In this document: positions 4,268 to 25,681 of the stretch, piece after piece
Position numbering within the stretch: the first letter of the stretch is position 1
Layout of the letters: every line of letters begins with the position of its first letter
From: an uncultured archaeon
GTDB lineage: Archaea; Micrarchaeota; Micrarchaeia; Anstonellales; Anstonellaceae
NCBI GenBank assembly: GCA_902384555.1
Contig: CABMCD010000024.1
Location: 15,615 to 79,614 of the forward strand
Direction: 5' to 3'
DNA: 64,000 bases
Notes under the pieces: model-generated
Told to the model about the DNA's origin: nothing
The model's input: the letters and a program-made list of their open reading frames with translations, nothing else
The model's database searches: none
Position numbers and translations under genes: made by a program

Positions 4268-5314
4268 TTATTGCAGGGCGAATCTCAGGAAGGCCGCCAG
4301 ACCGCCGATGCCGGCCAGCTCGCGCCCCCCTTCCGATTCGTGCGAGAAAATCATGAGCGGTATTTTCATGGCCTCGGCCTGCTCGACGATTTCCTCCACA
4401 TCATGGCGGTTTCGCAGCAGCTCGTCGAGCACCAGCACCTTGGAGGCGGCCGAAGCCTCCACCGCATTTTTCACGTTCTTGAGCCCGTAGCAGGCCTTGT
4501 CCGAGTTTTTGGCGATGAGCGTCTTGAACTCCTCCATGGTCTGCAGTTCCAGCGCCACGCGCTCGTCGGCCGCCACGCGCGAGAGCACGCCTTTCTTGAG
4601 CAGCTCGTTCACGCCGGTGCGGTCGGCGTAGGTGCAGTGCTCGACCACAAAGCGGGCCGAGAGCTTGGCGTCCCGCTCGCGGGCGAATTTGGAGAAATTG
4701 TTGGGCGCAAAGCCGGGACCGGCGAGGATGATTTTGTTGCTGCCCTCGATGCGCTGCAGGCGCGAGAGCAGCTCGCCGTAGAACTGGGAGGCGGCCTCGG
4801 CCTGCCGCTTCGCCTCGTCGCGCTTGCTCCCGCTGCGCTCCAGCTCCCATTCGTAATTGACGCCGTAGCCGCGCAGGGAGGCGAGCAGCGCCTCGCGCTC
4901 GTCAAGCACCAGCACGTGCACCAGCGGGCGCTTGGTCTCGGCCATCGCCTGCTTGAGGCGCGAGAGCTGGTGGCTTTTCCAGTCCTTGTAGATGGAGAGC
5001 GGGAAATGGGGCTCGGCGTCGATGGTGTGGTACGAGCCGGCCTGCACGAATTCGACTGGCGTGCCGCTGATGATTTTGCCCATGAGGCGCAGGCGGTTGG
5101 CGTGGCGCGCGAACTCGATTTTTTCAAGGGAGAGCAGAACGGTGATTTTCTTTTTCTCGGCCTGCGCCGTCTCAGAGGCCTTGAAGCTGCGCCAGGAAAC
5201 GGCCTCCACCTTGTCGCCCGGAGCCAGAATGCGCTCCAGATGCCACAAATCCTCCAAGTTTTCGGGCGTGACGCGAATCAGGCCCTCCTTCTTGTCCTGC
5301 TTGCCGATTTTCAT
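4268..5314 (-). CDS. pelA: mRNA surveillance protein Pelota
   Basis: PENLEDLWHL, RLRLMGKI, GSYHT, AGPGF and GIGGLAAFLRF eRF1-family motifs. Confidence 0.96.
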   Translation of the reverse strand: MKIGKQDKKEGLIRVTPENLEDLWHLERILAPGDKVEAVSWRSFKASETAQAEKKKITVLLSLEKIEFARHANRLRLMGKIISGTPVEFVQAGSYHTIDAEPHFPLSIYKDWKSHQLSRLKQAMAETKRPLVHVLVLDEREALLASLRGYGVNYEWELERSGSKRDEAKRQAEAASQFYGELLSRLQRIEGSNKIILAGPGFAPNNFSKFARERDAKLSARFVVEHCTYADRTGVNELLKKGVLSRVAADERVALELQTMEEFKTLIAKNSDKACYGLKNVKNAVEASAASKVLVLDELLRNRHDVEEIVEQAEAMKIPLMIFSHESEGGRELAGIGGLAAFLRFALQ

Positions 5315-5589: not shown

Positions 5590-6804
5590 ATGAATATTCA
5601 GCTTAAGCAGGAGAAACCCCAGCTCGATGCCAAAACAGAGGCCGTCGTCGATCGGTTTGTGGGCATACACCGCATTGGGGAGAAAATCGCCGGCATCCGT
5701 CCCGAAACGCTCAAGCCGGCCGCCGAATCCATCATCAAGGTGTGCAACACGGCGGAGCGGTTGGAGGGTGACCCCGCCAAGCTGCAGCACTGGAACTGGG
5801 CGCGGGAGCAGATGGTGAAGGCCGTCTTGGCCGTATTGGAAGAAATGGCCGCCCGGGCCGGATGCTCAAAATGCGCGGTTCGCTTTGACGAGAAAAGCGA
5901 GGCCTGCGTGCGGGTGGCGGATGCGTTCATCCGCATGGGGCACCTGACGCAGAACGTGCAGGACTTCGAAAATGCGGCCAACGTCTGGAGTTGGATTGAG
6001 AATACCCATGAGGACGAAGGCGTCCGGCAGAGCGGGCTGTCCATGCGCTCATATTGCTATGCCGCAATCGCGGAGGCGGGGGAAAGGGATTTGGCAAAGC
6101 AGGACGGGGCGGGCGCGGGCGTTCCTTCGGAAATCACCGGCTACTGGATTCAGGCGGCGATGTGCGCCTTTGAGGCCAAAAACGAGAAAGAATACCTCTA
6201 CCTCATGCGCCGGGCGCTGGAGTCCTACCTGCCCGGCGGGCAGGAAACGGGCCCGCTCACGGAGCCGGCCGGAATCAACTGGACCAAACCCTTTGAGAAG
6301 CCCCGGCTGGTTCCCGCCATGCTGGAACAGATTATGAGAGGTCTTCCAAACCGCCTCGGGGGCAAGGACGGCGCCGTCCAATGGACGGAGGAAACCGGCC
6401 GTTTGTGGAAGATGTACAGCTGGCTGGTGATGGACGTGTGCGCCCGGCGGACCGGCATCAGCAATGAAGCTTACCAATACGCCCAGCAGGAGCTGGAATG
6501 GGCGTTCCGCGAACCGGAGAGCGTGCTGCATTCCGCCAACATACCCCTGCATCTGGCCCGGCGCATGGTAAACCACGCCGAGGCCGGCATGAAGGCGGGA
6601 ACGGCCCATCCCGAGGCAATGGCCGTGATGATGGAAACGGCCAGCGTGCTGTCCGGAACCCATTGGTACGCGGTCACCGACTGCCTGATGCGGGCCCGCG
6701 AGTTTTGGGAGTTGGCGGACCATGAGGGCAAGTTCACCGACCATGCGCAGCGGCTTTGGGCCAACACCAAGAACATTATCGACAACGTGATTTACTTCGG
6801 ATGA
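5590..6804 (+). CDS. Hypothetical all-alpha (TPR/solenoid-like) protein
   Basis: 404-aa ORF with TATA-like TTTTAAA upstream; Ala/Trp-rich helical pattern. Confidence 0.7.
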   Translation: MNIQLKQEKPQLDAKTEAVVDRFVGIHRIGEKIAGIRPETLKPAAESIIKVCNTAERLEGDPAKLQHWNWAREQMVKAVLAVLEEMAARAGCSKCAVRFDEKSEACVRVADAFIRMGHLTQNVQDFENAANVWSWIENTHEDEGVRQSGLSMRSYCYAAIAEAGERDLAKQDGAGAGVPSEITGYWIQAAMCAFEAKNEKEYLYLMRRALESYLPGGQETGPLTEPAGINWTKPFEKPRLVPAMLEQIMRGLPNRLGGKDGAVQWTEETGRLWKMYSWLVMDVCARRTGISNEAYQYAQQELEWAFREPESVLHSANIPLHLARRMVNHAEAGMKAGTAHPEAMAVMMETASVLSGTHWYAVTDCLMRAREFWELADHEGKFTDHAQRLWANTKNIIDNVIYFG

Positions 6805-6874: not shown

Positions 6875-8638
6875 ATGCCCCGAATTGCCATCATCGACCG
6901 CGACAAGTGCTTCAAGGAGAAATGCGGCTACGTCTGCATGAAGGTGTGCCCCGGCGTGCAGATGGGCGACGATACGGTGACGGTGGATTCGGACGGCTTT
7001 CCGGTCATTTCCGAAGTGCTGTGCACCGGCTGCGGCATCTGCCCCAAGAAGTGCCCGGCCGACTGCATCACCATCATCAACATCGCCGAGGAGATGGGCA
7101 AGCCCGTGCACCAGTTCGGCGTGAACGAGTTCCGCCTCTACGGCCTGCCCCTGCCCCAAAAAGGCGTGGTCGGCCTCATCGGCAAGAACGGCATCGGCAA
7201 ATCCACGGCCCTGAAAATATTGGCCGGAAGCATCGTGCCCAACCTCAGCAACTATGCCCAGCCGCCGGAGATGAAGGAAGTCGTCTCCTCCCTTTCCCGC
7301 GAGACGGGCGCCTACCTCTCTTCGCTCACTGAAAAGAAAATCCGCGTGTCGCTCAAGCCCCAGAACGTGGACAAGATTCCGGCCGGCGTGCGCGGCAAGG
7401 TGAAAGACCTGCTCACCCGCCTCGACGAGCGCGGGGCGCTGGAGCGGGCGGTCGAGCACTTCGAGCTGGGCAGCATGATGGACAAGGAGCTGCGCCACAT
7501 CTCGGGCGGAGAATTGCAGCGCGTGGCCATTGCGGCCGCGTGGTGCAAGGACGCCGACCTCTACTATTTCGACGAGCCGGCCTCTTATCTCGACATCGAG
7601 CAGCGCCTGCGCGTGGGGGCGGCCATCAAGGAGCTGGCGGAAGAAAAGAACGTCATCGTGGTCGAGCATGATTTGGCCCTCTTTGATTATCTTTCGGAAT
7701 ATGTGCACGTGTTCTACGGGCAGGAAAATGCGTACGGCGTGGTGTCGGGCGTGAAAAACACGCGCGCGGGCATCAACCAGTATCTGCTGGGCTTTTTGAA
7801 AGAGGAGAACACGCGATTTCGGGACCATGAAATCCGCTTCTCGCGCAACGTGTCGGCCACGGCCTCCAAGGGCAAAATCGCGCTGCAATACCCGGCCCTG
7901 TCCAAGAAGTTCGACGGCTTTTCCTTTTCGGCCGAGCCGGGACAGCTGCGGATGGGCGAAGTGGTCGGCATCATGGGCCGCAACGCCATCGGCAAGTCGC
8001 TGTTCGTGAAACTGCTGGCCGGCGTGGAAAAGAACGAGAGCGGCGAGGAGCTGGAGCAGACGATTAAGGTGTCTTACAAGCCCCAATACGTGAAAGCCCT
8101 GCCCGGCGTCACGGTGGGAGCGCTCTTTGCCCAGCACAAATTGGAGCCGGCGTTTTTCGAGGAAGCCTCGCGCAAACTGAATGTGACCAGCCTCGCCGAC
8201 AAGGAGCTGGAGCACCTCTCAGGCGGAGAATTGCAGCGGGTGGCCATTGTGCTGGCCCTCTCGCAAACGGCCGACTTGTATTTGCTGGATGAGCCTTCGG
8301 CCTTTTTGGATGTGGAGCAGCGCCTGCATCTGGCCGGGCTTTTGCAGCGCCTGATTCAGAATTCGGGCAGAATGGCCATGGTGGTGGACCACGACCTTGT
8401 GTTCTTGGACGCCATCTCCTCGCGCGTCATGGTGTTCGAGGGCGAGGGCGGGCGGAAGGGCCATGCGGGGGCCCCGGCCGACAAGCGCGCGGGCCTCAAC
8501 GCCTTCCTCAAGCAGATGGACATCACGCTGCGCCGCGACCCCGATACGGGCCGGCCGCGCATCAACAAGCCCGACTCGGCGCTTGACCGCGAGCAGAAAG
8601 AGGCGGGCGAGTACTATTACTACGACCCGAACGCGTGA
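6875..8638 (+). CDS. rli: Ribosome recycling ATPase ABCE1/RLI
   Basis: N-terminal Fe-S motifs (C..KVCP, CTGCGICPKKCP), two ABC domains with SGGELQR, C-terminal RPRINK. Confidence 0.97.
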   Translation: MPRIAIIDRDKCFKEKCGYVCMKVCPGVQMGDDTVTVDSDGFPVISEVLCTGCGICPKKCPADCITIINIAEEMGKPVHQFGVNEFRLYGLPLPQKGVVGLIGKNGIGKSTALKILAGSIVPNLSNYAQPPEMKEVVSSLSRETGAYLSSLTEKKIRVSLKPQNVDKIPAGVRGKVKDLLTRLDERGALERAVEHFELGSMMDKELRHISGGELQRVAIAAAWCKDADLYYFDEPASYLDIEQRLRVGAAIKELAEEKNVIVVEHDLALFDYLSEYVHVFYGQENAYGVVSGVKNTRAGINQYLLGFLKEENTRFRDHEIRFSRNVSATASKGKIALQYPALSKKFDGFSFSAEPGQLRMGEVVGIMGRNAIGKSLFVKLLAGVEKNESGEELEQTIKVSYKPQYVKALPGVTVGALFAQHKLEPAFFEEASRKLNVTSLADKELEHLSGGELQRVAIVLALSQTADLYLLDEPSAFLDVEQRLHLAGLLQRLIQNSGRMAMVVDHDLVFLDAISSRVMVFEGEGGRKGHAGAPADKRAGLNAFLKQMDITLRRDPDTGRPRINKPDSALDREQKEAGEYYYYDPNA

Positions 8639-8695
8639 TTAACCCCGGCCCCGGACAGAAGCGGATTTAAATGCTCCAGTCGCCCCAATAGAGAT

Positions 8696-11600
8696 ATGCT
8701 GGCGTTCCTGCTGAGAAACGGGCCGTCCCCCAACTCGACGCCAGGCTCCGGCATCCAGACCGCCCCTCCGGCGGATGAAATCCGCGTCGCGCATCAGGGC
8801 AGCGAGGTCAATATCAAATTGGAGAGCGGAGAACAGCAGGCCTTCCACCTAAGCCCCTTCTATTTCAACGTCAAAATCGAGCGGGAGGCCAAACAGGCAA
8901 ATTCCGGCCCCTATCCGACCGTCAAGCCCTCCAATTCGGTCTTTTTCGGCGCGGAGTCGCCCCCGTCCGTCAGCCAGTCCCTCTACTCGCTCACCACCTC
9001 AGGCGGCATGGGAAACGTGTCCGCCTTCCACCTCAGCGACAATCTGGACGAGTTCGTGCAGTCGCTCAACGCCGACATCGCCAAGCTGCTGCATGCCGGC
9101 GACTATGCCGGGGCGCTGGAGCTGGTCAAACAGGCCCGGTACGCCATGGCCAGCGCGCAAAACAGCGTGTCCGACAGCCTGCTGAAGATGGGGCTGGGGG
9201 ATGTGAAAGAAGAGGTCGGCGTGCGCTTTGAGAAGGCGCAAAAGCCCCTGAACGCATGGGACTCCTTCTGCTCGCTCATGGCCTCGCTCTACCAGACCGG
9301 CGGGCCGGGGCCGCTCAGCCCGCTGCAGACCTTTGAGGCGCTGGACCGGACCGACCTCGTTTACCTGATGGGGGAGGGCGCATACGGCCAAATCCGGAAT
9401 TTTCTGATCCTGTACGAACAGGCCCGCGAGCCGGTGGCCCTGCATTATTCCCAATACGCCAGCCACTCGCTCAAAGACGGATTTGCAGCGGCCGAAAAAG
9501 GGCTGGGGGAGCTGGCGGCCGACATCCAAAAATTCAGGCAGTTGTGCGCCTCTGGCGCGGAGTCGTCCGAATTCGAGAAGTTGGCCGAGCGCTGGCACCT
9601 GCCCTACTCCAGCCGCCTCGGCCTGCTATCCAATCTCATCGGCCTCTACAATCAGGCGGCCGTCAGCTACCAGAACGTGGCCGTGCTGGACATGGTGCAG
9701 AACAACCGCCTCGACGCCGTGCTGGACGCCGACCCGCAATACCGGGCCATGGGCGGGGAGGAGCAGGCGGCTTTGAGGCAGGGCTATGTGGATTTGGCGG
9801 GCCGCTATTCCGAGGCCGTCGAAACCCGGCGCGTGGGCATGGCGGCGCTCTATTCGCTTGGCTGCCAGCCGGCCCGCTGGGCCTCCTTCGTGCCGACCGT
9901 GCCCGACACCAAGCCGGACGAATTGCTGACTGCGTCGGATTTGGGTTATTTCGCCCTCTGCCAGACGCTGGGCCTGCTGCTGCCGGGCGTCGGGGACGAG
10001 CGAAAACAGCAGGGCCCGCTTTTCTACGACGCGCTCAAGGTGCGCCAGCTGGGCATGGCCATGGATTTCGACGAGACCATGGGGCAGAAGCGGGACGTGA
10101 CTTCGCGCACCCGCGACTTGGCCAAGGCGGCGGGCGAGACCATGGTGAGGGGCGAGATGTCCTACGTCGACATCCCGCACCTGATGAAGAATTTCGAGAA
10201 GGAGCTGGCCGGGCAGTACGCGTCGGTGGGCCGCGAGGTGGCGACCGGCGCGATGATAGACAAGCTCTTGCGCCCCCAGAGCAACAACGACTTGGAGGAA
10301 AGCGTCGAGGCGCTGGGGCAGATGTACGGCAAGCAGGCGCTGATGATGGCGGCCGGAGGGTTGGCGCTCTTCAAGGGCTCGCGCCCGGTTTCCCAATTTT
10401 TGATGAACGCGCTGGTGGCGTGGGACATTTATGACAAGGATTACGTGGGCGCCGGCACCGTGCTGATGGCGATGTATGGCAGCCGCAGGATTCCGCTCCT
10501 TGGGCGCACCCTGCCGTTTGGGGCCGAGATGCAGGCGCTGGCCACCGGCAAAATGACCATCGACGGCTTCAAGATGGCGGCCCAGAGCTTGGGCGAGCTG
10601 AAATACGGCGCCAGCGGCCCCGCCCTCTTCGACGCGACGGCCGGCGTGATGATGGGGCTGGTCATTCCGATTTACCATGGGCAGGTGCAGATGAAGAACA
10701 TTGAGAATTTCTACAGCCAAGTGGCGCAGTTCGTGCGCGAAACCGGCGTGGAGGGCGTGGCGCGGGCCGGGTTCGTGCCGTTCGCGATGCATGTGAGCGG
10801 AATGGCGGAGCCGGGCATCAGGCTGCCCGTCCAAACCTACACCGAGTTCGGCAAGTTCGGGGGCAAAACCAATTTCATCCGAATCGAGAGTGCGGACGAG
10901 ACTTACGACATTCAGCTCAAGCAGGACAGGGGCGGCTTCAGCTATGTCTATGACGGCTCGCCCGACCTGATGCTGGTCCGCAACAGCCAGCGCGTGCAGA
11001 TGCAGAAAGGGTTCGAATACGAATTGCAGGAAGGCGATAGGTTCTTCTTCCGCCAGCCATCCGGAAAACCGGACGTGCTGCTGCAAATCGGCAACAACCG
11101 CTACGACGCGTATGAGAGGCCGCTGAAGACCGCTACGCCGACTGGAAACAAGGCCAACAACGCCTACAAGGCCGGTGAGCAGACGGCCGGGAACACGGCA
11201 AACACCGGGGAGAAAACCGGCAAGCAAACGCAGGGCGCCAAAACCCAAGAGCCGAAAAGGGCGCAAACATCCAAGCTCGAGAGCCAAAAGCTGGCGTACG
11301 GCGTCACGCTGGAGCCGGGCTCGGACGGCCAGTATTACCTGCTCAACCGCTCGGACGGCACGGCTTACATCAAGCGCAACGGGATTTTGGAGAGCGTGCA
11401 GACTTGGCCGTTCAACAAGGCCGGCGTGCCAATGCAGGAGGGAGACGCCGTATATGTGGCCGTGGAAACGGGATACAATACGGGGCATTATCAGGAGTTT
11501 GTGATAAAGGGCGGAAAGGCCGTCGAGGGCCAGCGGCTCTCGGTGGAACAGCTCAAGTTCAGGGAAGACCAGACGCAGGAAAAGAATGGCGGGAAATTCG

Positions 11601-12070
11601 AGGACTGGACCGGCACGCAAGGAAAGCAGGCCGGAGGAAGCGAGTTCAGTTGGGACAACTTCTGGGAAACGTTCAAGAACGCCCAAAAGGATTTCACCGA
11701 CCAGTACAACCGCCAGCAGAAGGAGAAGGCCGAACAGGAGGCCCAGCGCAGAAAAGCCCAGTGGGACGCGTGGGAGCAGGCGCAGCGCAACGCCAACCGG
11801 AATCGGGGAGCGGGAGGCCAGAAGCAGCAAACCGGGAAGAGCGAGGAGCGGTTAAAGACGAAGCCCCCGGCGCCCCCTACGGCGGCCGACTACAAGACGC
11901 TGGGCGTTTCGCGAAACGCCACCTACGATGAGGTCCGAAGCGCGTACCGCAAGCTGGCCAAGAAATACCACCCGGATTACAACAAGTCACCCGGTGCAGA
12001 AAACAAATTCAAGGAGCTTAGCGACGCGTACGCGCGAATCGAGAACAAGCTCAAGCCGGCGCCCAAATGA
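8696..12070 (+). CDS. 1124-aa multidomain protein with C-terminal DnaJ (J) domain
   Basis: C-terminus [48 protein letters not shown] is a canonical J-domain with HPD; the rest is unassigned. Confidence 0.85.
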
Positions 12071-12226
12071 GGATTCGCGGCCCGGATTTCGGCCGTGCGG
12101 AGAATGGGGGCCCGGATGCGCGGCCAAAAGCGCGCTTCCGCTATTTTTTCATGTTTTTTTCACCTCGAAGCGGGATATGCCTATTTTAATCTATTCCCCG
12201 TTGGAGAGCTCCGACAGGTGGATTAA

Positions 12227-13300
12227 ATGGAAAGTCTTGTGAAATCCGTCCTGGGTGAGCAAGGGCCAGCTCAAAGCGAAAGCACAGATTTTGGCTCGGA
12301 CCAGATTAGGATTTGCGTGGTAGGTGTCGGAGGCGGTGGTAACAACACCATCAACCGGCTCATTCGCTCGGGCGTGAAGGGATGCGACCTGCTCGCGGTT
12401 AACACCGACAGGCAGCACCTGAACATGATCCACGAGAAGGCCAAGAAGGTGCTCATCGGAAAGAGCATCACCAAAGGACTTGGCGCTGGTGGCTACCCCG
12501 AGACGGGTGCGAAGTCGGCTGAGGTCGACCGCGGCCTCTTGGAGAAAGAGCTCGAAGGCGCTCACCTCGTGTTTGTGTGCGCCGGCATGGGCGGTGGTAC
12601 CGGTACCGGTGCCGCTCCGGTGATTGCTGAAATCGCCAAGGAGCAGGGCGCCATCACGGTCGCCATGGTCACGTATCCCTTCAACCTCGAGCGCGCGCGG
12701 CGCGCCAAGGCGGACGAGGGCATTGCGCGCCTGCGCAAGACCGTGGATTCCGTCATCGTGCTCGACAACAACCGTCTCGTCAAGCTCGTGCCGAACCTGC
12801 CGATGAACGAAGCATTCGCAGTGGCTGATGAAATCCTCGCAAAGGCCGTGGGCGGCCTGGTGTGGACCATTACCCAGCCCTCTCTCATCAACATTGACTT
12901 CGCCGATGTGCGGGCCATTGTGACGGGAGGAGGCGTGGGCTTCATCGCCGTGGGCGAGGGCAAGGGCACCGACAAGGTGCGCTCTGCCGCTGAAGGCGTG
13001 CTCAAGAACCGCCTGCTCGACGTGGAATTCGATGGTGCCAACGGCGCCCTCATCCACATCTCGGGCGGCGCGGACCTGACGCTGGGAGATGCCATCAAGG
13101 CCGGTGAAATCATCACCGAGAAGATGGATGCCCAGGCCAACGTCAAGTGGGGCGCGCGTCTCATCCCCGGCTACGACGGCAAGCTGGAAATCGTCGCGAT
13201 TGTCACCGGCGTGAAGGGAGCCAACGTGTTTGGCGCCTCCGCGGAAGAGCCGGTGCGCGCAACCGCGTCGAGCTACAGCGACATCGAAATCATTGGATGA
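12227..13300 (+). CDS. ftsZ: Cell division protein FtsZ (FtsZ2-type)
   Basis: GVGGGGNN, GMGGGTGTG, PFNLERAR, LDNNRL and PSLINIDFAD. Confidence 0.97.
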   Translation: MESLVKSVLGEQGPAQSESTDFGSDQIRICVVGVGGGGNNTINRLIRSGVKGCDLLAVNTDRQHLNMIHEKAKKVLIGKSITKGLGAGGYPETGAKSAEVDRGLLEKELEGAHLVFVCAGMGGGTGTGAAPVIAEIAKEQGAITVAMVTYPFNLERARRAKADEGIARLRKTVDSVIVLDNNRLVKLVPNLPMNEAFAVADEILAKAVGGLVWTITQPSLINIDFADVRAIVTGGGVGFIAVGEGKGTDKVRSAAEGVLKNRLLDVEFDGANGALIHISGGADLTLGDAIKAGEIITEKMDAQANVKWGARLIPGYDGKLEIVAIVTGVKGANVFGASAEEPVRATASSYSDIEIIG

Positions 13301-13339: not shown

Positions 13340-13585
13340 AATTTTCGCGCTTTTCGTTAATCCAATTTTTGCGCACATCGTCGAGGGAAAATGCGCGTTT
13401 TTCATCCCTTACCACACTCGAATTTATTTTTTCGGTTTTTCCACGACGGATAATCTATCTGCTTTTTAAACATTTTATCTATCTACAATCCATCACGCAG
13501 GTGATTCGCGCACTCCCGATGATTGCGACCAGATTGGGGCGGCGCGAAAATGGGCATGACGACAAAAAGACGGGGGTTGGGCAGT

Positions 13586-14695
13586 ATGTTGGAAGGTTTT
13601 GTGGCCTCGGCCAAGGAGAATAACAGCGCGCCGGTTCAGCACAGCGACCCGGTCGGCATCGACGGACTGATGTCGAACGACAAAATCCGCATCGCCGTGG
13701 TGGGCGTAGGCGGAGGCGGCTGCAACACCGTGGACCGCATGATGAAGAGCGGCATCCAGTCGGCCCAGACCATGGCCGTCAACACCGATTCCCTGCACTT
13801 GCGCTCGATTCAGTCTCACAAGAAAGTGCTGATTGGAGGAAACGTCACCAAAGGATTGGGCGCCGGCGGCTTCCCCGAAGTGGCCGAGAAGTGCGCGCAG
13901 GCCTCCAAGCAGCAAATCCGCGACGCGCTGGGCGAGACCGAGCTGGTCTTCCTCTGCGCCGGCATGGGCGGCGGCACCGGCACCGGCGCGGCCCCCGTCG
14001 TGGCCGAGGTGGCCAAGGAAATGGGCGCCGTCGTGGTTTCCATCGTCACGATTCCGTTTGCGCTGGAGCGCGCGCGCATGAAGAAGGCCGTGTGGGGTTT
14101 GCAGAGGCTCGCCCCGCACTCCGACACCATGGCCGTGATTGACAACAACCGCCTGGTGAGCTATGTCCCCAACCTCCCCATTTCCGACGCCTTCAACCTT
14201 GCCGACGCGATTACGGGAAAGGCCGTGCGCGGCATTGCGGACACCATCATGATGCCCAGCCTGATGAACATCGACTACGCCGACGTGCGCTCGGTGATGC
14301 AGGACGGCGGCGTGGCGCTGATTTCGATGGGCGAGGCCCACGGCAACGACCGCGTGCAGAACGTGATTAAGAACACCCTCGACCACCCCCTGCTCGACGT
14401 CTCCTACGAGGGAGCCAAGGGCGCGCTCCTGCACATTGCGGGCGGCTCCAGCCTCTCTTTGGGCGACTCGATTGCGGTGGCGGAGGGCATCAGCAAGGAC
14501 TTCGCCTCAGACGCCAACGTCAAGATGGGCGCCCGCCTCGACCCCGGCATGGGCGATTTGGTGACCGTGACGGCCATCGTGACCGGCCTCAAGTCGGGCC
14601 AGCTGGAGGGCATCATCGGCCAGATGGGCGGCGCACAGAGCCACCCCGAGCCGGCCAAGCCCAGCTTCTCGATGGAAAGCGTGGTTGAACTCTAA
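13586..14695 (+). CDS. ftsZ: Second FtsZ paralog (FtsZ2-type)
   Basis: GVGGGGCN, GMGGGTGTG, PFALERAR, IDNNRL and PSLMNIDYAD; the start could alternatively be 13550. Confidence 0.95.
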   Translation: MLEGFVASAKENNSAPVQHSDPVGIDGLMSNDKIRIAVVGVGGGGCNTVDRMMKSGIQSAQTMAVNTDSLHLRSIQSHKKVLIGGNVTKGLGAGGFPEVAEKCAQASKQQIRDALGETELVFLCAGMGGGTGTGAAPVVAEVAKEMGAVVVSIVTIPFALERARMKKAVWGLQRLAPHSDTMAVIDNNRLVSYVPNLPISDAFNLADAITGKAVRGIADTIMMPSLMNIDYADVRSVMQDGGVALISMGEAHGNDRVQNVIKNTLDHPLLDVSYEGAKGALLHIAGGSSLSLGDSIAVAEGISKDFASDANVKMGARLDPGMGDLVTVTAIVTGLKSGQLEGIIGQMGGAQSHPEPAKPSFSMESVVEL

Positions 14696-24457: not shown

Positions 24458-25624
24458 TTATATGGAAGTAAAATAGTTATATGGAATTAAAATAGTATTC
24501 CCAAAAGCCGGAGTGCGCCCGCACGGGACGGGCGCGAAGAGGGCCGCGGCGGCGGGAGGGGGAATCGGGCCACGGCCAGAACGGATGGGCCCGCCGTAGG
24601 CCGCATCGAGGGCGTCTGCCGGAAGCCGCAGCGGGAATTCGATGGAGAAAATGGTCGGATTCTGCCGGGAGAGGATGCGGATGGACGCGCCGGGCGTGCG
24701 GCCGACGATTTCCACGGTGTCCGCCAGCCCCTGTCCCGTGGAATCGATGCGGTTGTCGTTTTCCACGCCCCGCACGAAGGCCCGGGAAGCCTCCAATTCG
24801 CTCATGCCGACGCCGTCGTCCTGCACCATAAGCCGCGCGCGGCCGCCCTGCGAAACGACGGACACCACGACCTCCTTGCGCGCATACTTGAAGGCATTGG
24901 AAAGAAGGTTGCCCAGAGCGATTTCGAACAGCATCGGGTCCGCCAAGACAGGGCAGACCGGAAGGGGGGAGGGCACGTCGAGGCGGATGCGGACGCGGGA
25001 GCGGGAGGGGACGTAACGCTCGACCACCCGCTGGGCCATCTCCACCAAGTCGGCTGGAAAGAGCCGCGGCACATAGCCGTTGCCGGAAAGCTGGCGGAAG
25101 AACTGCAGACGCGCATACTGGGCGGAAACGCTCTTCTCCGTCGTGCTTATGAATTGCAAATCAGCCGCAAGGCAGTCGGGATGGGAGGCCATTGGAAAAC
25201 CGTTCGAGAGCAGGTAGTTGTGCAAAAGCGCGTAATCGGAGGAGCGGGGGGCCGAAACAGGCTCCGAGGCAATGGACTGCAAGCGCAATTGAAGGCTCTG
25301 GGTCTGGACAAGGAATTTGTGGATGGCGGCTTCCATGTCCCGGACAAGCGCGTCGGAGGGTAGAACGGAATATTGGCGGTATTTTTCGGCCAGAATAAGG
25401 TATTGTCTCTGAATAGCCTTGACCTCGTCGAATGGAAGGGCGCAGATGTTGTTGCTGAACATGCAGATGGCCCCTTTGAGGGAGTGCAGCGTGACGCCCT
25501 GAATCTTGGAGGTCGAGTAGGGCAGGACCAGGCCGGACACGCCAGACGCCGATTCCACCACAGGCAGGCTGCGCGGGGGGACACGTGCAGATGTCGGATT
25601 AAGGACACGCAGGTATAATTTCAT
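24458..25624 (-). CDS. Orphan histidine kinase-like GHKL ATPase
   Basis: N-box NLLSNAFKY, G1 DDGVG, G2 STGQGL; no clear H-box or TM. Confidence 0.75.
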   Translation of the reverse strand: MKLYLRVLNPTSARVPPRSLPVVESASGVSGLVLPYSTSKIQGVTLHSLKGAICMFSNNICALPFDEVKAIQRQYLILAEKYRQYSVLPSDALVRDMEAAIHKFLVQTQSLQLRLQSIASEPVSAPRSSDYALLHNYLLSNGFPMASHPDCLAADLQFISTTEKSVSAQYARLQFFRQLSGNGYVPRLFPADLVEMAQRVVERYVPSRSRVRIRLDVPSPLPVCPVLADPMLFEIALGNLLSNAFKYARKEVVVSVVSQGGRARLMVQDDGVGMSELEASRAFVRGVENDNRIDSTGQGLADTVEIVGRTPGASIRILSRQNPTIFSIEFPLRLPADALDAAYGGPIRSGRGPIPPPAAAALFAPVPCGRTPAFGNTILIPYNYFTSI

Positions 25625-25644
25625 GAATAATCCACGTTTTTCTT

Positions 25645-25681
25645 TTTTATATGACAAATATACGTATTTTGACATATAAAA
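25645..25681. promoter_or_regulatory. 37-bp imperfect AT-rich palindrome upstream of the kinase-like gene
   Basis: TTTTATATGACAAATATACGTATTTTGACATATAAAA is nearly self-complementary. Confidence 0.6.

Follow-up and report, generated by a model that had tools for sequence, protein, structure and literature searches.

Which task does a protein of 1124 residues that ends in a J-domain fulfil in an uncultured archaeon with a genome of 1.30 Mb? The question is raised by P0001, a gene encoded in a stretch of 64,000 nucleotides (contig CABMCD010000024.1 of assembly GCA_902384555.1, positions 15,615 to 79,614; referred to as the window) from a member of the Anstonellaceae. The source lineage belongs to the Micrarchaeota and thus to the DPANN archaea; the assembled genome comprises 42 contigs and is 92% complete. 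A preliminary description of the sequence had considered the gene product either as a host-directed effector of a symbiotic archaeon that co-opts Hsp70 or as a chaperone adaptor for the ftsZ pair downstream. The data presented here make it very likely that P0001 is a member of a rare and previously undescribed family, so far named only from Micrarchaeota, in which a conserved N-terminal body is combined with interchangeable C-terminal payloads. As the best explanation of the whole, to which we assign a probability of roughly 45%, we propose that P0001 belongs to such a modular family, works as a targeting adaptor and plays an effector-like role.

The modular design became apparent from the relatives of P0001. 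A phmmer search over 1.84 billion representative proteins revealed four proteins at E ≤ 1e-30, all matching only approximately residues 1-700: P0002 (905 aa, E 2.4e-221, 51% identity, query 1-701), P0003 (1985 aa, E 1e-40, 30% identity, query 100-686), P0004 (1310 aa, E 8e-40, 31% identity, query 103-392 as the best of two stretches and 103-695 in BLASTP) and P0005 (902 aa, E 3e-31, 28% identity, query 89-697). The remaining matches listed in this search cover the J-domain only. In an alignment of P0001-P0005 the sequences are conserved from about residue 100 up to an invariant P-x-Y-H-G motif (P658, Y660, H661 and G662; residues 658-662, nt 10667-10681), which closes the last conserved block and is followed by a short, weakly conserved stretch and then by divergence. 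The body, termed body A, is 51-53% identical to that of P0002 over about 700 residues and 24-31% identical to those of P0003-P0005. Past the boundary, P0002, which comes from a Micrarchaeota metagenome-assembled genome, continues with a single beta-module and, after a short linker, closes with a J-like part in which HQG replaces the HPD motif (DnaJ 17.3 bits, below cut-off); P0005 gives a sub-threshold PIN_12 match (22.5 bits versus 32), and P0003 and P0004 possess long multi-domain ends without Pfam matches. PDB sequence searches with P0003-P0005 returned chance-level rows only. Relatives that share the N-terminal part of about 700 residues and carry swapped C-termini had been named beforehand as a test of the effector idea, and the swapped ends of P0002-P0005 indeed suggest an effector-like or polymorphic modular design. 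Word-indexed protein searches recovered only the query itself or, with a body profile, the query and P0002; they missed P0005, so that their blanks carry little weight. A search for related loci gave none in genome contigs and, in metagenome contigs, one contig of 1950 bp (L036, 25% identity) that is too short to provide context.

The payload of P0001 terminates in a J-domain, as noted in the preliminary description. PF00226 matches residues 1066-1116 (nt 11891-12043) with an E-value of 4.2e-17 and 62.4 bits versus a cut-off of 27.8, and the HPD motif (residues 1092-1094, nt 11969-11977) lines up with that of all 14 further J-domains in an alignment that also includes one J-like domain. The His-Pro-Asp residues between helices II and III are those required for Hsp70 stimulation. 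The protein ends directly after helix III of the J-domain and has no helix IV. A Foldseek search with the C-terminal model returned J-domains only, at E 0.06 or weaker, among which 4j7z_E (E 0.06, probability 0.99) belongs to the best rows. The J-domain is the sole Pfam match on P0001; neither a DnaJ zinc finger, in agreement with the preliminary description, nor a C-terminal DnaJ domain was found, and the hallmarks of class A and B DnaJ proteins (Gly/Phe region, CxxCxGxG zinc finger and C-terminal substrate-binding domains) are lacking. The previously noted lack of dnaK and grpE is correct for the 64-kb window but not for the genome, which harbours grpE-dnaK-dnaJ with a canonical DnaJ of 377 aa on another contig (C1); their lack in the window does therefore not imply an organism without Hsp70. 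Two J-domain matches exist in this genome, on DnaJ and on P0001. J-domains also occur in other settings, namely at the C-terminus of helical-repeat proteins of about 310 aa (genomes G002, G005 and G006) and of Cys-rich proteins of 143-144 aa (G008 and G018) of relatives, at the N-terminus of their proteins continuing with repeats (G010 and G011), and as six tandem HPD J-domains in P0006, a metagenomic protein of 679 aa unrelated to the body family.

Payload parts are also shared with further giant proteins of the order. An all-against-all BLASTP comparison of 13 proteins, a small database that yields generous E-values, detected a cassette 1 common to G001_1614, G010_1362 and P0004 (1e-20 to 7e-34) and a cassette 2 common to G005_1680, G010_1362 and P0003 (1e-12 to 4e-21). 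Moreover, HATPase_c is present in the giants of G001 and G005, GNAT in G003_1634 and G009_1410, and a J-domain or J-like end in P0001, P0002 and G021_929. Cassette 2 carries an invariant G-H-G ... S-C signature. Pfam at E ≤ 10 gave nothing for either cassette and PDB profile searches gave chance-level rows only; these searches confirmed neither a "kinase-like" identity of cassette 1 nor the "clan CD protease-like" one to which the signature points for cassette 2. The genome of P0001 encodes a second giant of 2478 aa on contig C27 (L059:1273-8709, +), which contains a Gly-rich hydrophobic segment at about residues 640-800, cassette 2 at residues 1372-1579 (hidden Markov model (HMM) E 1.4e-24) and a HATPase-like part at residues 1863-2007. 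HMMs of cassette 1 and of the second body type described below did not match in this genome.

The order of parts seen in P0001 recurs in G021_929, a protein of 929 aa from another genus of the same family (L039:1725-4514, +), which was found by following weak J-domain matches in relatives and is encoded directly after a metK-like gene, as judged by reading the translation. It starts with a helical region, which is followed by a hydrophobic segment rich in Gly, a pair of beta-modules, a Q/R-rich linker and finally an HPD J-domain (PF00226, E 4e-14). Bodies of the G021_929 type, termed body B, were found in 5 of the 176 genomes of the order, itself included, the others being G042, G010 (1362 aa), G175 (811 aa) and G009 (1410 aa, with GNAT). 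With G021_929 as a single sequence, hhalign found no match to body A. A body-B profile, by contrast, could be aligned to body A (probability 60%, E 8.5e-5, 111 columns), and the aligned region coincides exactly with the Gly-rich segments. Among the 13 proteins, G175 matches P0003 (BLASTP 6.6e-4), and the N-terminus of the G001 giant matches the body-B member of G042 (BLASTP 2.5e-10).

The distribution of P0001 is very patchy. Of the 176 genomes of the order, the present one alone was matched by the body-A profile, all 41 further genomes of the family that were searched being negative; the N-terminal 985 residues of P0001 were found in one of the seven genomes of the genus, and no body-A paralogue was found in this genome. 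P0001 lies between ABCE1 and ftsZ1, an interval that was compared in five genomes of the same genus (the present genome, G000, and G001, G003, G004 and G005). In G000 the interval contains P0001, in G003 a methyltransferase gene (-) and a 1634-aa open reading frame (ORF) (+), in G001 a 1614-aa ORF (-), in G005 a 1680-aa ORF (-) and in G004 a methyltransferase gene and an ABC-transporter pair. Hence, four of the five slots (G000, G001, G003 and G005) accommodate an ORF of at least 1124 aa, a different one each time. Since its contents differ among genomes of one genus, the ABCE1-ftsZ1 slot is a hotspot for species-specific giant genes. Six loci from other genera carry no ABCE1-like ORF among the listed ORFs of at least 250 aa upstream of ftsZ1 and therefore say nothing on the slot.

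The coordinates of P0001, its signals and its parts are compiled below.

Table 1. Features of P0001 and of its flanking signals, numbered along the window. AF2, AlphaFold2; pLDDT, predicted local distance difference test.
Feature	Residues	Position	Strand	Basis
Putative promoter: TATA-like box ATTTAAAT, centre about 27 nt 5′ of the ATG		8665-8672	+	read from sequence
P0001, whole gene	1124 aa	8696-12070	+	single uninterrupted ORF and translation
Small N-terminal beta-sheet, four strands (predicted)	28-61	8777-8878	+	AF2, block pLDDT 83/80/85 for 31-60, 54 for 21-30
Helical bundle of the body (predicted)	110-390	9023-9865	+	AF2, confident, block pLDDT 72-92 for 111-380
Further helical body (predicted, low confidence)	391-545	9866-10330	+	AF2, block pLDDT <60 except 411-430 (80-83) and 441-450 (75)
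Gly/Ala-rich hydrophobic helical segment	546-662	10331-10681	+	alignment, phmmer, AF2 helical pLDDT 36-56
Beta-module 1 (predicted)	706-800	10811-11095	+	sequence; AF2 single-sequence strands, pLDDT 28-42, unreliable
Linker 1, low complexity, rich in T/A/K/N	801-862	11096-11281	+	composition; pLDDT <50
Beta-module 2, about seven strands (predicted)	863-955	11282-11560	+	AF2, pLDDT 56-68
Linker 2, Q/K/E-rich	956-1063	11561-11884	+	composition (14.8% Q, 11.1% K, 10.2% E)
C-terminal J-domain	1064-1124	11885-12067	+	PF00226 match, alignment, Foldseek
Putative oligo-T terminator: two T-runs (6 + 7 T), 74 nt past the stop		12144-12160	+	sequence reading

The architecture of the body was analysed with an AF2 model built on the five-sequence alignment (mean pLDDT 60.7). 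Residues 391-545, despite the low confidence of the model there, can still be aligned with P0002-P0005. The Gly/Ala-rich segment (13.7% Gly, 14.5% Ala) is composed of short hydrophobic helices interrupted by charges, and residues 541-665 retrieved P0002 (8.4e-60) and P0003-P0005 (3e-20 to 1e-18) by phmmer in a set of 11 proteins. This stretch, as well as the two strings quoted for the module ends, is present as given in the preliminary description, which had placed the segment alongside the membrane-inserting segments of delivered toxins. Membrane insertion is not supported by the hydropathy: the maximum Kyte-Doolittle mean over 19 residues is 1.49 (at residue 641), and no stretch longer than 14 aa is devoid of charged residues, polar residues and proline. 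As the hydropathy stays under the usual transmembrane level, a clear or classical membrane span is not indicated by the sequence. Comparison of the body model with known structures yielded no Foldseek match at E ≤ 0.001 and, with VIA, generic helix bundles only, which scored below the helical background; a PDB sequence search with the body profile gave chance-level rows only, and the Protein Atlas provided no usable match for the body or the beta-modules.

The C-terminal 435 residues were modelled by AF2 without an alignment (mean pLDDT 47.7), and the central portion of linker 2 is predicted as one long helix at about residues 986-1038 (model residues 297-349, pLDDT 58-85). Beta-module 2 is probably a beta-sandwich of about seven strands according to this model. 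Both modules had been described as FHA-like on the basis of their ends. FHA domains bind phosphothreonine by residues of Gly-Arg, Ser-x-x-His and Asn-Gly loops. Inspection of module 2 disclosed an S-D-G-T...R-N-G sequence but neither G-R nor S-x-x-H, and a reliable FHA alignment was not obtained. In contrast to established FHA domains (PF00498; FHA-2 of Rv1747, PDB 6cah), the modules alone produced no Pfam match even at E ≤ 10, and hhalign of a five-module profile against a genuine FHA domain of the same order arrived at a probability of 2%, with only 19 columns around ..EGD.. aligned. Six-frame scans with PF00498 were negative for both this genome and G021, and of 41 related genomes only one gave a genuine FHA match. 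Each module of G021_929 starts with G-R and ends with ..GD..; this pair resembles FHA domains more closely than the modules of P0001 do, but gives no PF00498 match either. Searched alone against the 176 genomes of the order, the beta-modules of P0001 matched only in their own genome, and PDB sequence searches with them led to chance-level rows only. The structural hint at an FHA fold is weak and derived from a poor, low-confidence model; the earlier label is not supported, and an FHA identity of beta-module 2 is possible but unproven.

P0001 has a GC content of 0.622 and a GC content at third codon positions (GC3) of 0.838, which match those of the genome (GC 0.617) and of the neighbouring genes (GC3 0.77-0.87) and qualify it as a native coding gene. 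Judged by archaeal TATA consensus, spacing and terminator rules, P0001 probably forms a separate, probably leaderless, transcription unit, because a TATA-like box and T-runs of its own flank it and a separate AT-rich box, at 12182-12190, precedes the ftsZ1 start codon (ATG at 12227). The ABCE1 stop codon (8636-8638) lies 5′ of the TATA-like box, and the 156 nt between the end of P0001 and ftsZ1 on the same strand hold only an overlapping out-of-frame ORF. The neighbourhood reads pelota (-), an orphan 404-aa ORF, ABCE1/RLI, P0001, two ftsZ genes and a diphthamide-synthase-family gene and is of housekeeping character. The closest named relatives of ABCE1 stem from "Candidatus Micrarchaeota archaeon" (73% identity), Anstonellaceae and Micrarchaeia.

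Several observations concern these surroundings. The ftsZ genes are arranged in tandem (12227-13300 and 13523-14695, +); a search of 26 genomes of the family recovered the first copy at 85-96% identity in 25 of them, the second copy (50-55% identical) usually being located just downstream, and four FtsZ-like matches exist in this genome in total. The orphan helical 404-aa ORF (5590-6804, +), without a match in Pfam, NCBIfam or PADLOC, is placed between pelota (4268-5314, -) and ABCE1, and since these two are direct divergent neighbours in G001, G003, G004 and G005, it represents a second species-specific insertion. A methyltransferase-like gene of 421-449 aa (Methyltransf_23, E 6e-7) adjoins ABCE1 in G003 and G004 (L026:3600-4949, -, and L027:5423-6688, -; 56% identical to each other) and is missing from the slot of the window. 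Farther away, a HATPase_c protein of 405 aa (E 3.4e-9; 24461-25675, -) is encoded amid housekeeping genes, where no partner regulator was noticed. In G011, which belongs to another genus, an ORF of at least 2498 aa with N/S/T-rich repeats and a hydrophobic N-terminus is found two genes from ftsZ1 (L032:3506-11002, +); by its sequence it looks like a surface protein of the beta-helix type.

On this basis we suggest the following scenario for P0001. The conserved body would be constituted by the small beta-sheet, the helical bundle and the Gly/Ala-rich hydrophobic helices closing with P-x-Y-H-G, and the payload by the two small beta-modules, the two disordered or coiled linkers and a J-domain predicted to be competent. 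The body, perhaps together with the beta-modules, might fix P0001 to a site or client, and the tethered J-domain would then recruit an Hsp70, presumably a DnaK, and trigger its ATPase activity at that site. A DPANN episymbiont would most likely use such a protein inside its partner cell or at the site of contact with it. An effector-like or conflict role is favoured over a housekeeping role by the swapped payloads, the very patchy distribution and the variability of the slot within one genus. Of the effector previously envisaged, the modular design with swapped C-termini thus stands, whereas delivery to a host and co-option of the Hsp70 of this host are steps that we infer, and P0001 may act either on a host or in its own cell. 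A more far-reaching version, according to which P0001 would be the first archaeal J-domain hijacker of a partner's Hsp70 within a Micrarchaeota superfamily of signal-less polymorphic effectors, the helical body with its Gly-rich hydrophobic core passing through, or inserting at, the junction with the host cell and the payloads comprising a J-domain, a candidate clan-CD-like protease, a candidate kinase-like part, HATPase, GNAT and a PIN-like part, appears unlikely to us.

A series of findings weighs against an effector-like role. P0001 has no signal peptide, no secretion or trafficking domain recognisable by Pfam, NCBIfam or PADLOC and no secretion genes nearby, although export by an undescribed archaeal route is conceivable; a classical membrane span, as stated, is not indicated. 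No immunity-like gene is present between its stop codon and ftsZ1, and the entire window consists of housekeeping genes. The closest relative P0002 has lost HPD, so that Hsp70 activation is not conserved even within the sub-lineage. The J-domain is 50-56% identical to those of canonical Micrarchaeota DnaJ proteins over 64 columns (52% to that of its own DnaJ), but only 33% and 34% identical to the ends of P0002 and G021_929, respectively; an own grpE-dnaK-dnaJ set is available in the genome, and the small C-terminal-J proteins of relatives resemble ordinary in-cell adaptors. In addition, the payload domains mostly have no verified identity. The relatedness of bodies A and B is suggestive, not firm, the signal being weak and possibly affected by composition; the Gly-rich segments of a third body type (the C27 giant and those of G001, G003 and G005) compare with those of A and B at non-significant E-values of 0.33 and 0.19, and the beta-modules of P0001 were equated with those of G021_929 by a MAFFT alignment and by inspection, without a significant score.

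Several of these points suit a class C J-protein acting in its own cell: its body would tie it to some structure or patch of membrane belonging to the archaeon, its J-domain would bring in the own DnaK in the manner of DjlA, auxilin or TopJ-type adaptors, and other members of the family would direct different enzymes to that site. Class C (type III) J-domain proteins may carry their J-domain at the C-terminus, as exemplified by E. coli DjlA, and P0001 resembles them in that its HPD J-domain is the sole chaperone domain and is positioned behind a long non-chaperone region presumably conferring specificity. The resident Hsp70 system, the closeness of the J-domain to those of the lineage's DnaJ proteins, the varied C-terminal-J proteins of Micrarchaeota relatives (G002, G005, G006; G008, G018), the housekeeping neighbourhood and the missing secretion signal and immunity gene all speak for this explanation, as does a weak and partial NCBIfam similarity to DjlA and TopJ models, which is restricted to the J-domain and far under the cut-offs (29.9 bits versus 162 for the DjlA model NF006948; the TopJ models are far under theirs). 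Unlike DjlA, however, P0001 lacks an N-terminal membrane span, its hydropathy maximum being internal, and unlike class C proteins in general its body constitutes a separate family shared with proteins without a J-domain. Occurrence in one of 176 genomes of the order and in one of seven of the genus would be odd for a housekeeping adaptor, and the PIN-like end and the enzyme cassettes shuffled between bodies, the slot contents differing between species of one genus and the nearest relative without HPD fit it poorly as well. We regard an action in cis as possible, albeit doubtful. Quite improbable is the idea that P0001 is a polymorphic toxin of the classical kind, with which archaea would compete on contact and whose toxic C-terminus would be paired with a cognate immunity protein. 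Well-known polymorphic toxin/effector systems are those of the Rhs, CdiA and LXG types, and the body family shares with them the conserved N-terminal part, a sharp boundary motif (here P-x-Y-H-G), differing C-termini and cassettes reused on different N-terminal parts; the sub-threshold PIN match of P0005 fits this picture and examples of archaeal polymorphic toxin loci are in print (accessible part of PMC6393860). P0001 differs from such systems in lacking a known trafficking domain (Pfam, NCBIfam, PADLOC) and an adjacent immunity gene or immunity-like ORF and in bearing a co-chaperone domain rather than a toxin; moreover, arrays of orphan C-terminal cassettes were not seen in the window. The other proposal of the preliminary description, a chaperone adaptor that serves the ftsZ pair, could draw on the location of P0001 156 nt ahead of ftsZ1 and in the same orientation, but it is close to refuted, given the separate transcription unit deduced from the TATA-like box, the T-runs at 12144-12160 and the AT-rich box at 12182-12190, the contrast between an FtsZ1 that is 85-96% identical in 25 of 26 family genomes and a body found in 0 of 41 others, and the unrelated genes upstream of ftsZ1 in G001, G003, G004 and G005. 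Nor does P0001 look like a decaying, non-functional fusion ORF. It is nearly an orphan, and its long low-complexity C-terminal linkers and the weak AF2 models there might be taken in this sense, but a 3.4-kb frame is kept intact in a 1.3-Mb genome with a GC3 of 0.838, the body is 51-53% identical to P0002 over about 700 residues and 24-31% identical in three more proteins, and the HPD J-domain is intact, all of which renders decay very improbable.

A precedent for the proposed effector-like role is offered by HopI1, a type III effector of Pseudomonas syringae with a C-terminal J-domain, which is a delivered protein that redirects the Hsp70 of the partner cell (accessible part of PMC4617103). 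P0001 is not related to HopI1 in sequence outside the J-domain, is archaeal and devoid of a type III system and is 2.6 times longer, and its delivery is postulated. Large multi-domain proteins of DPANN symbionts are represented by the SPEARE giants of Nanohaloarchaeota, which combine enzyme domains and have been proposed to act at the contact with the host; as far as the accessible part of the source describes them, they span 3,000-8,500 aa, are mostly extracytoplasmic and have a clear transmembrane anchor, adhesion domains and a restriction-enzyme part (PMC6642349). None of these features, i.e. the extracytoplasmic layout, the anchor, the adhesion domains and the restriction-enzyme part, was found in P0001. 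Among publications judged by titles and the openings of abstracts, supplements not covered, nothing linked Micrarchaeota with J-domains, and nothing fitting was encountered that joins polymorphic toxins to J-domains or DPANN effectors to Hsp70; a paper on a Micrarchaeon co-culture mentions neither chaperone, DnaK or Hsp70 nor secretion (PMC8975820). As far as this search reaches, the architecture of P0001 and its body family are undescribed, whereas the J-domain itself is ordinary.

The molecular means by which DPANN archaea manipulate their hosts are largely unknown, and a family with one body and shuffled payloads provides concrete candidates for interaction proteins, further members of which can be sought by means of the P-x-Y-H-G boundary motif. 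If P0001 indeed plays an effector-like role, its J-domain payload would add chaperone recruitment to the toolkit of an archaeal symbiont, as in a bacterial plant pathogen. If it acts in its own cell instead, P0001 would represent a new architecture of class C J-proteins and imply that reduced genomes, too, diversify the adaptors of their DnaK.

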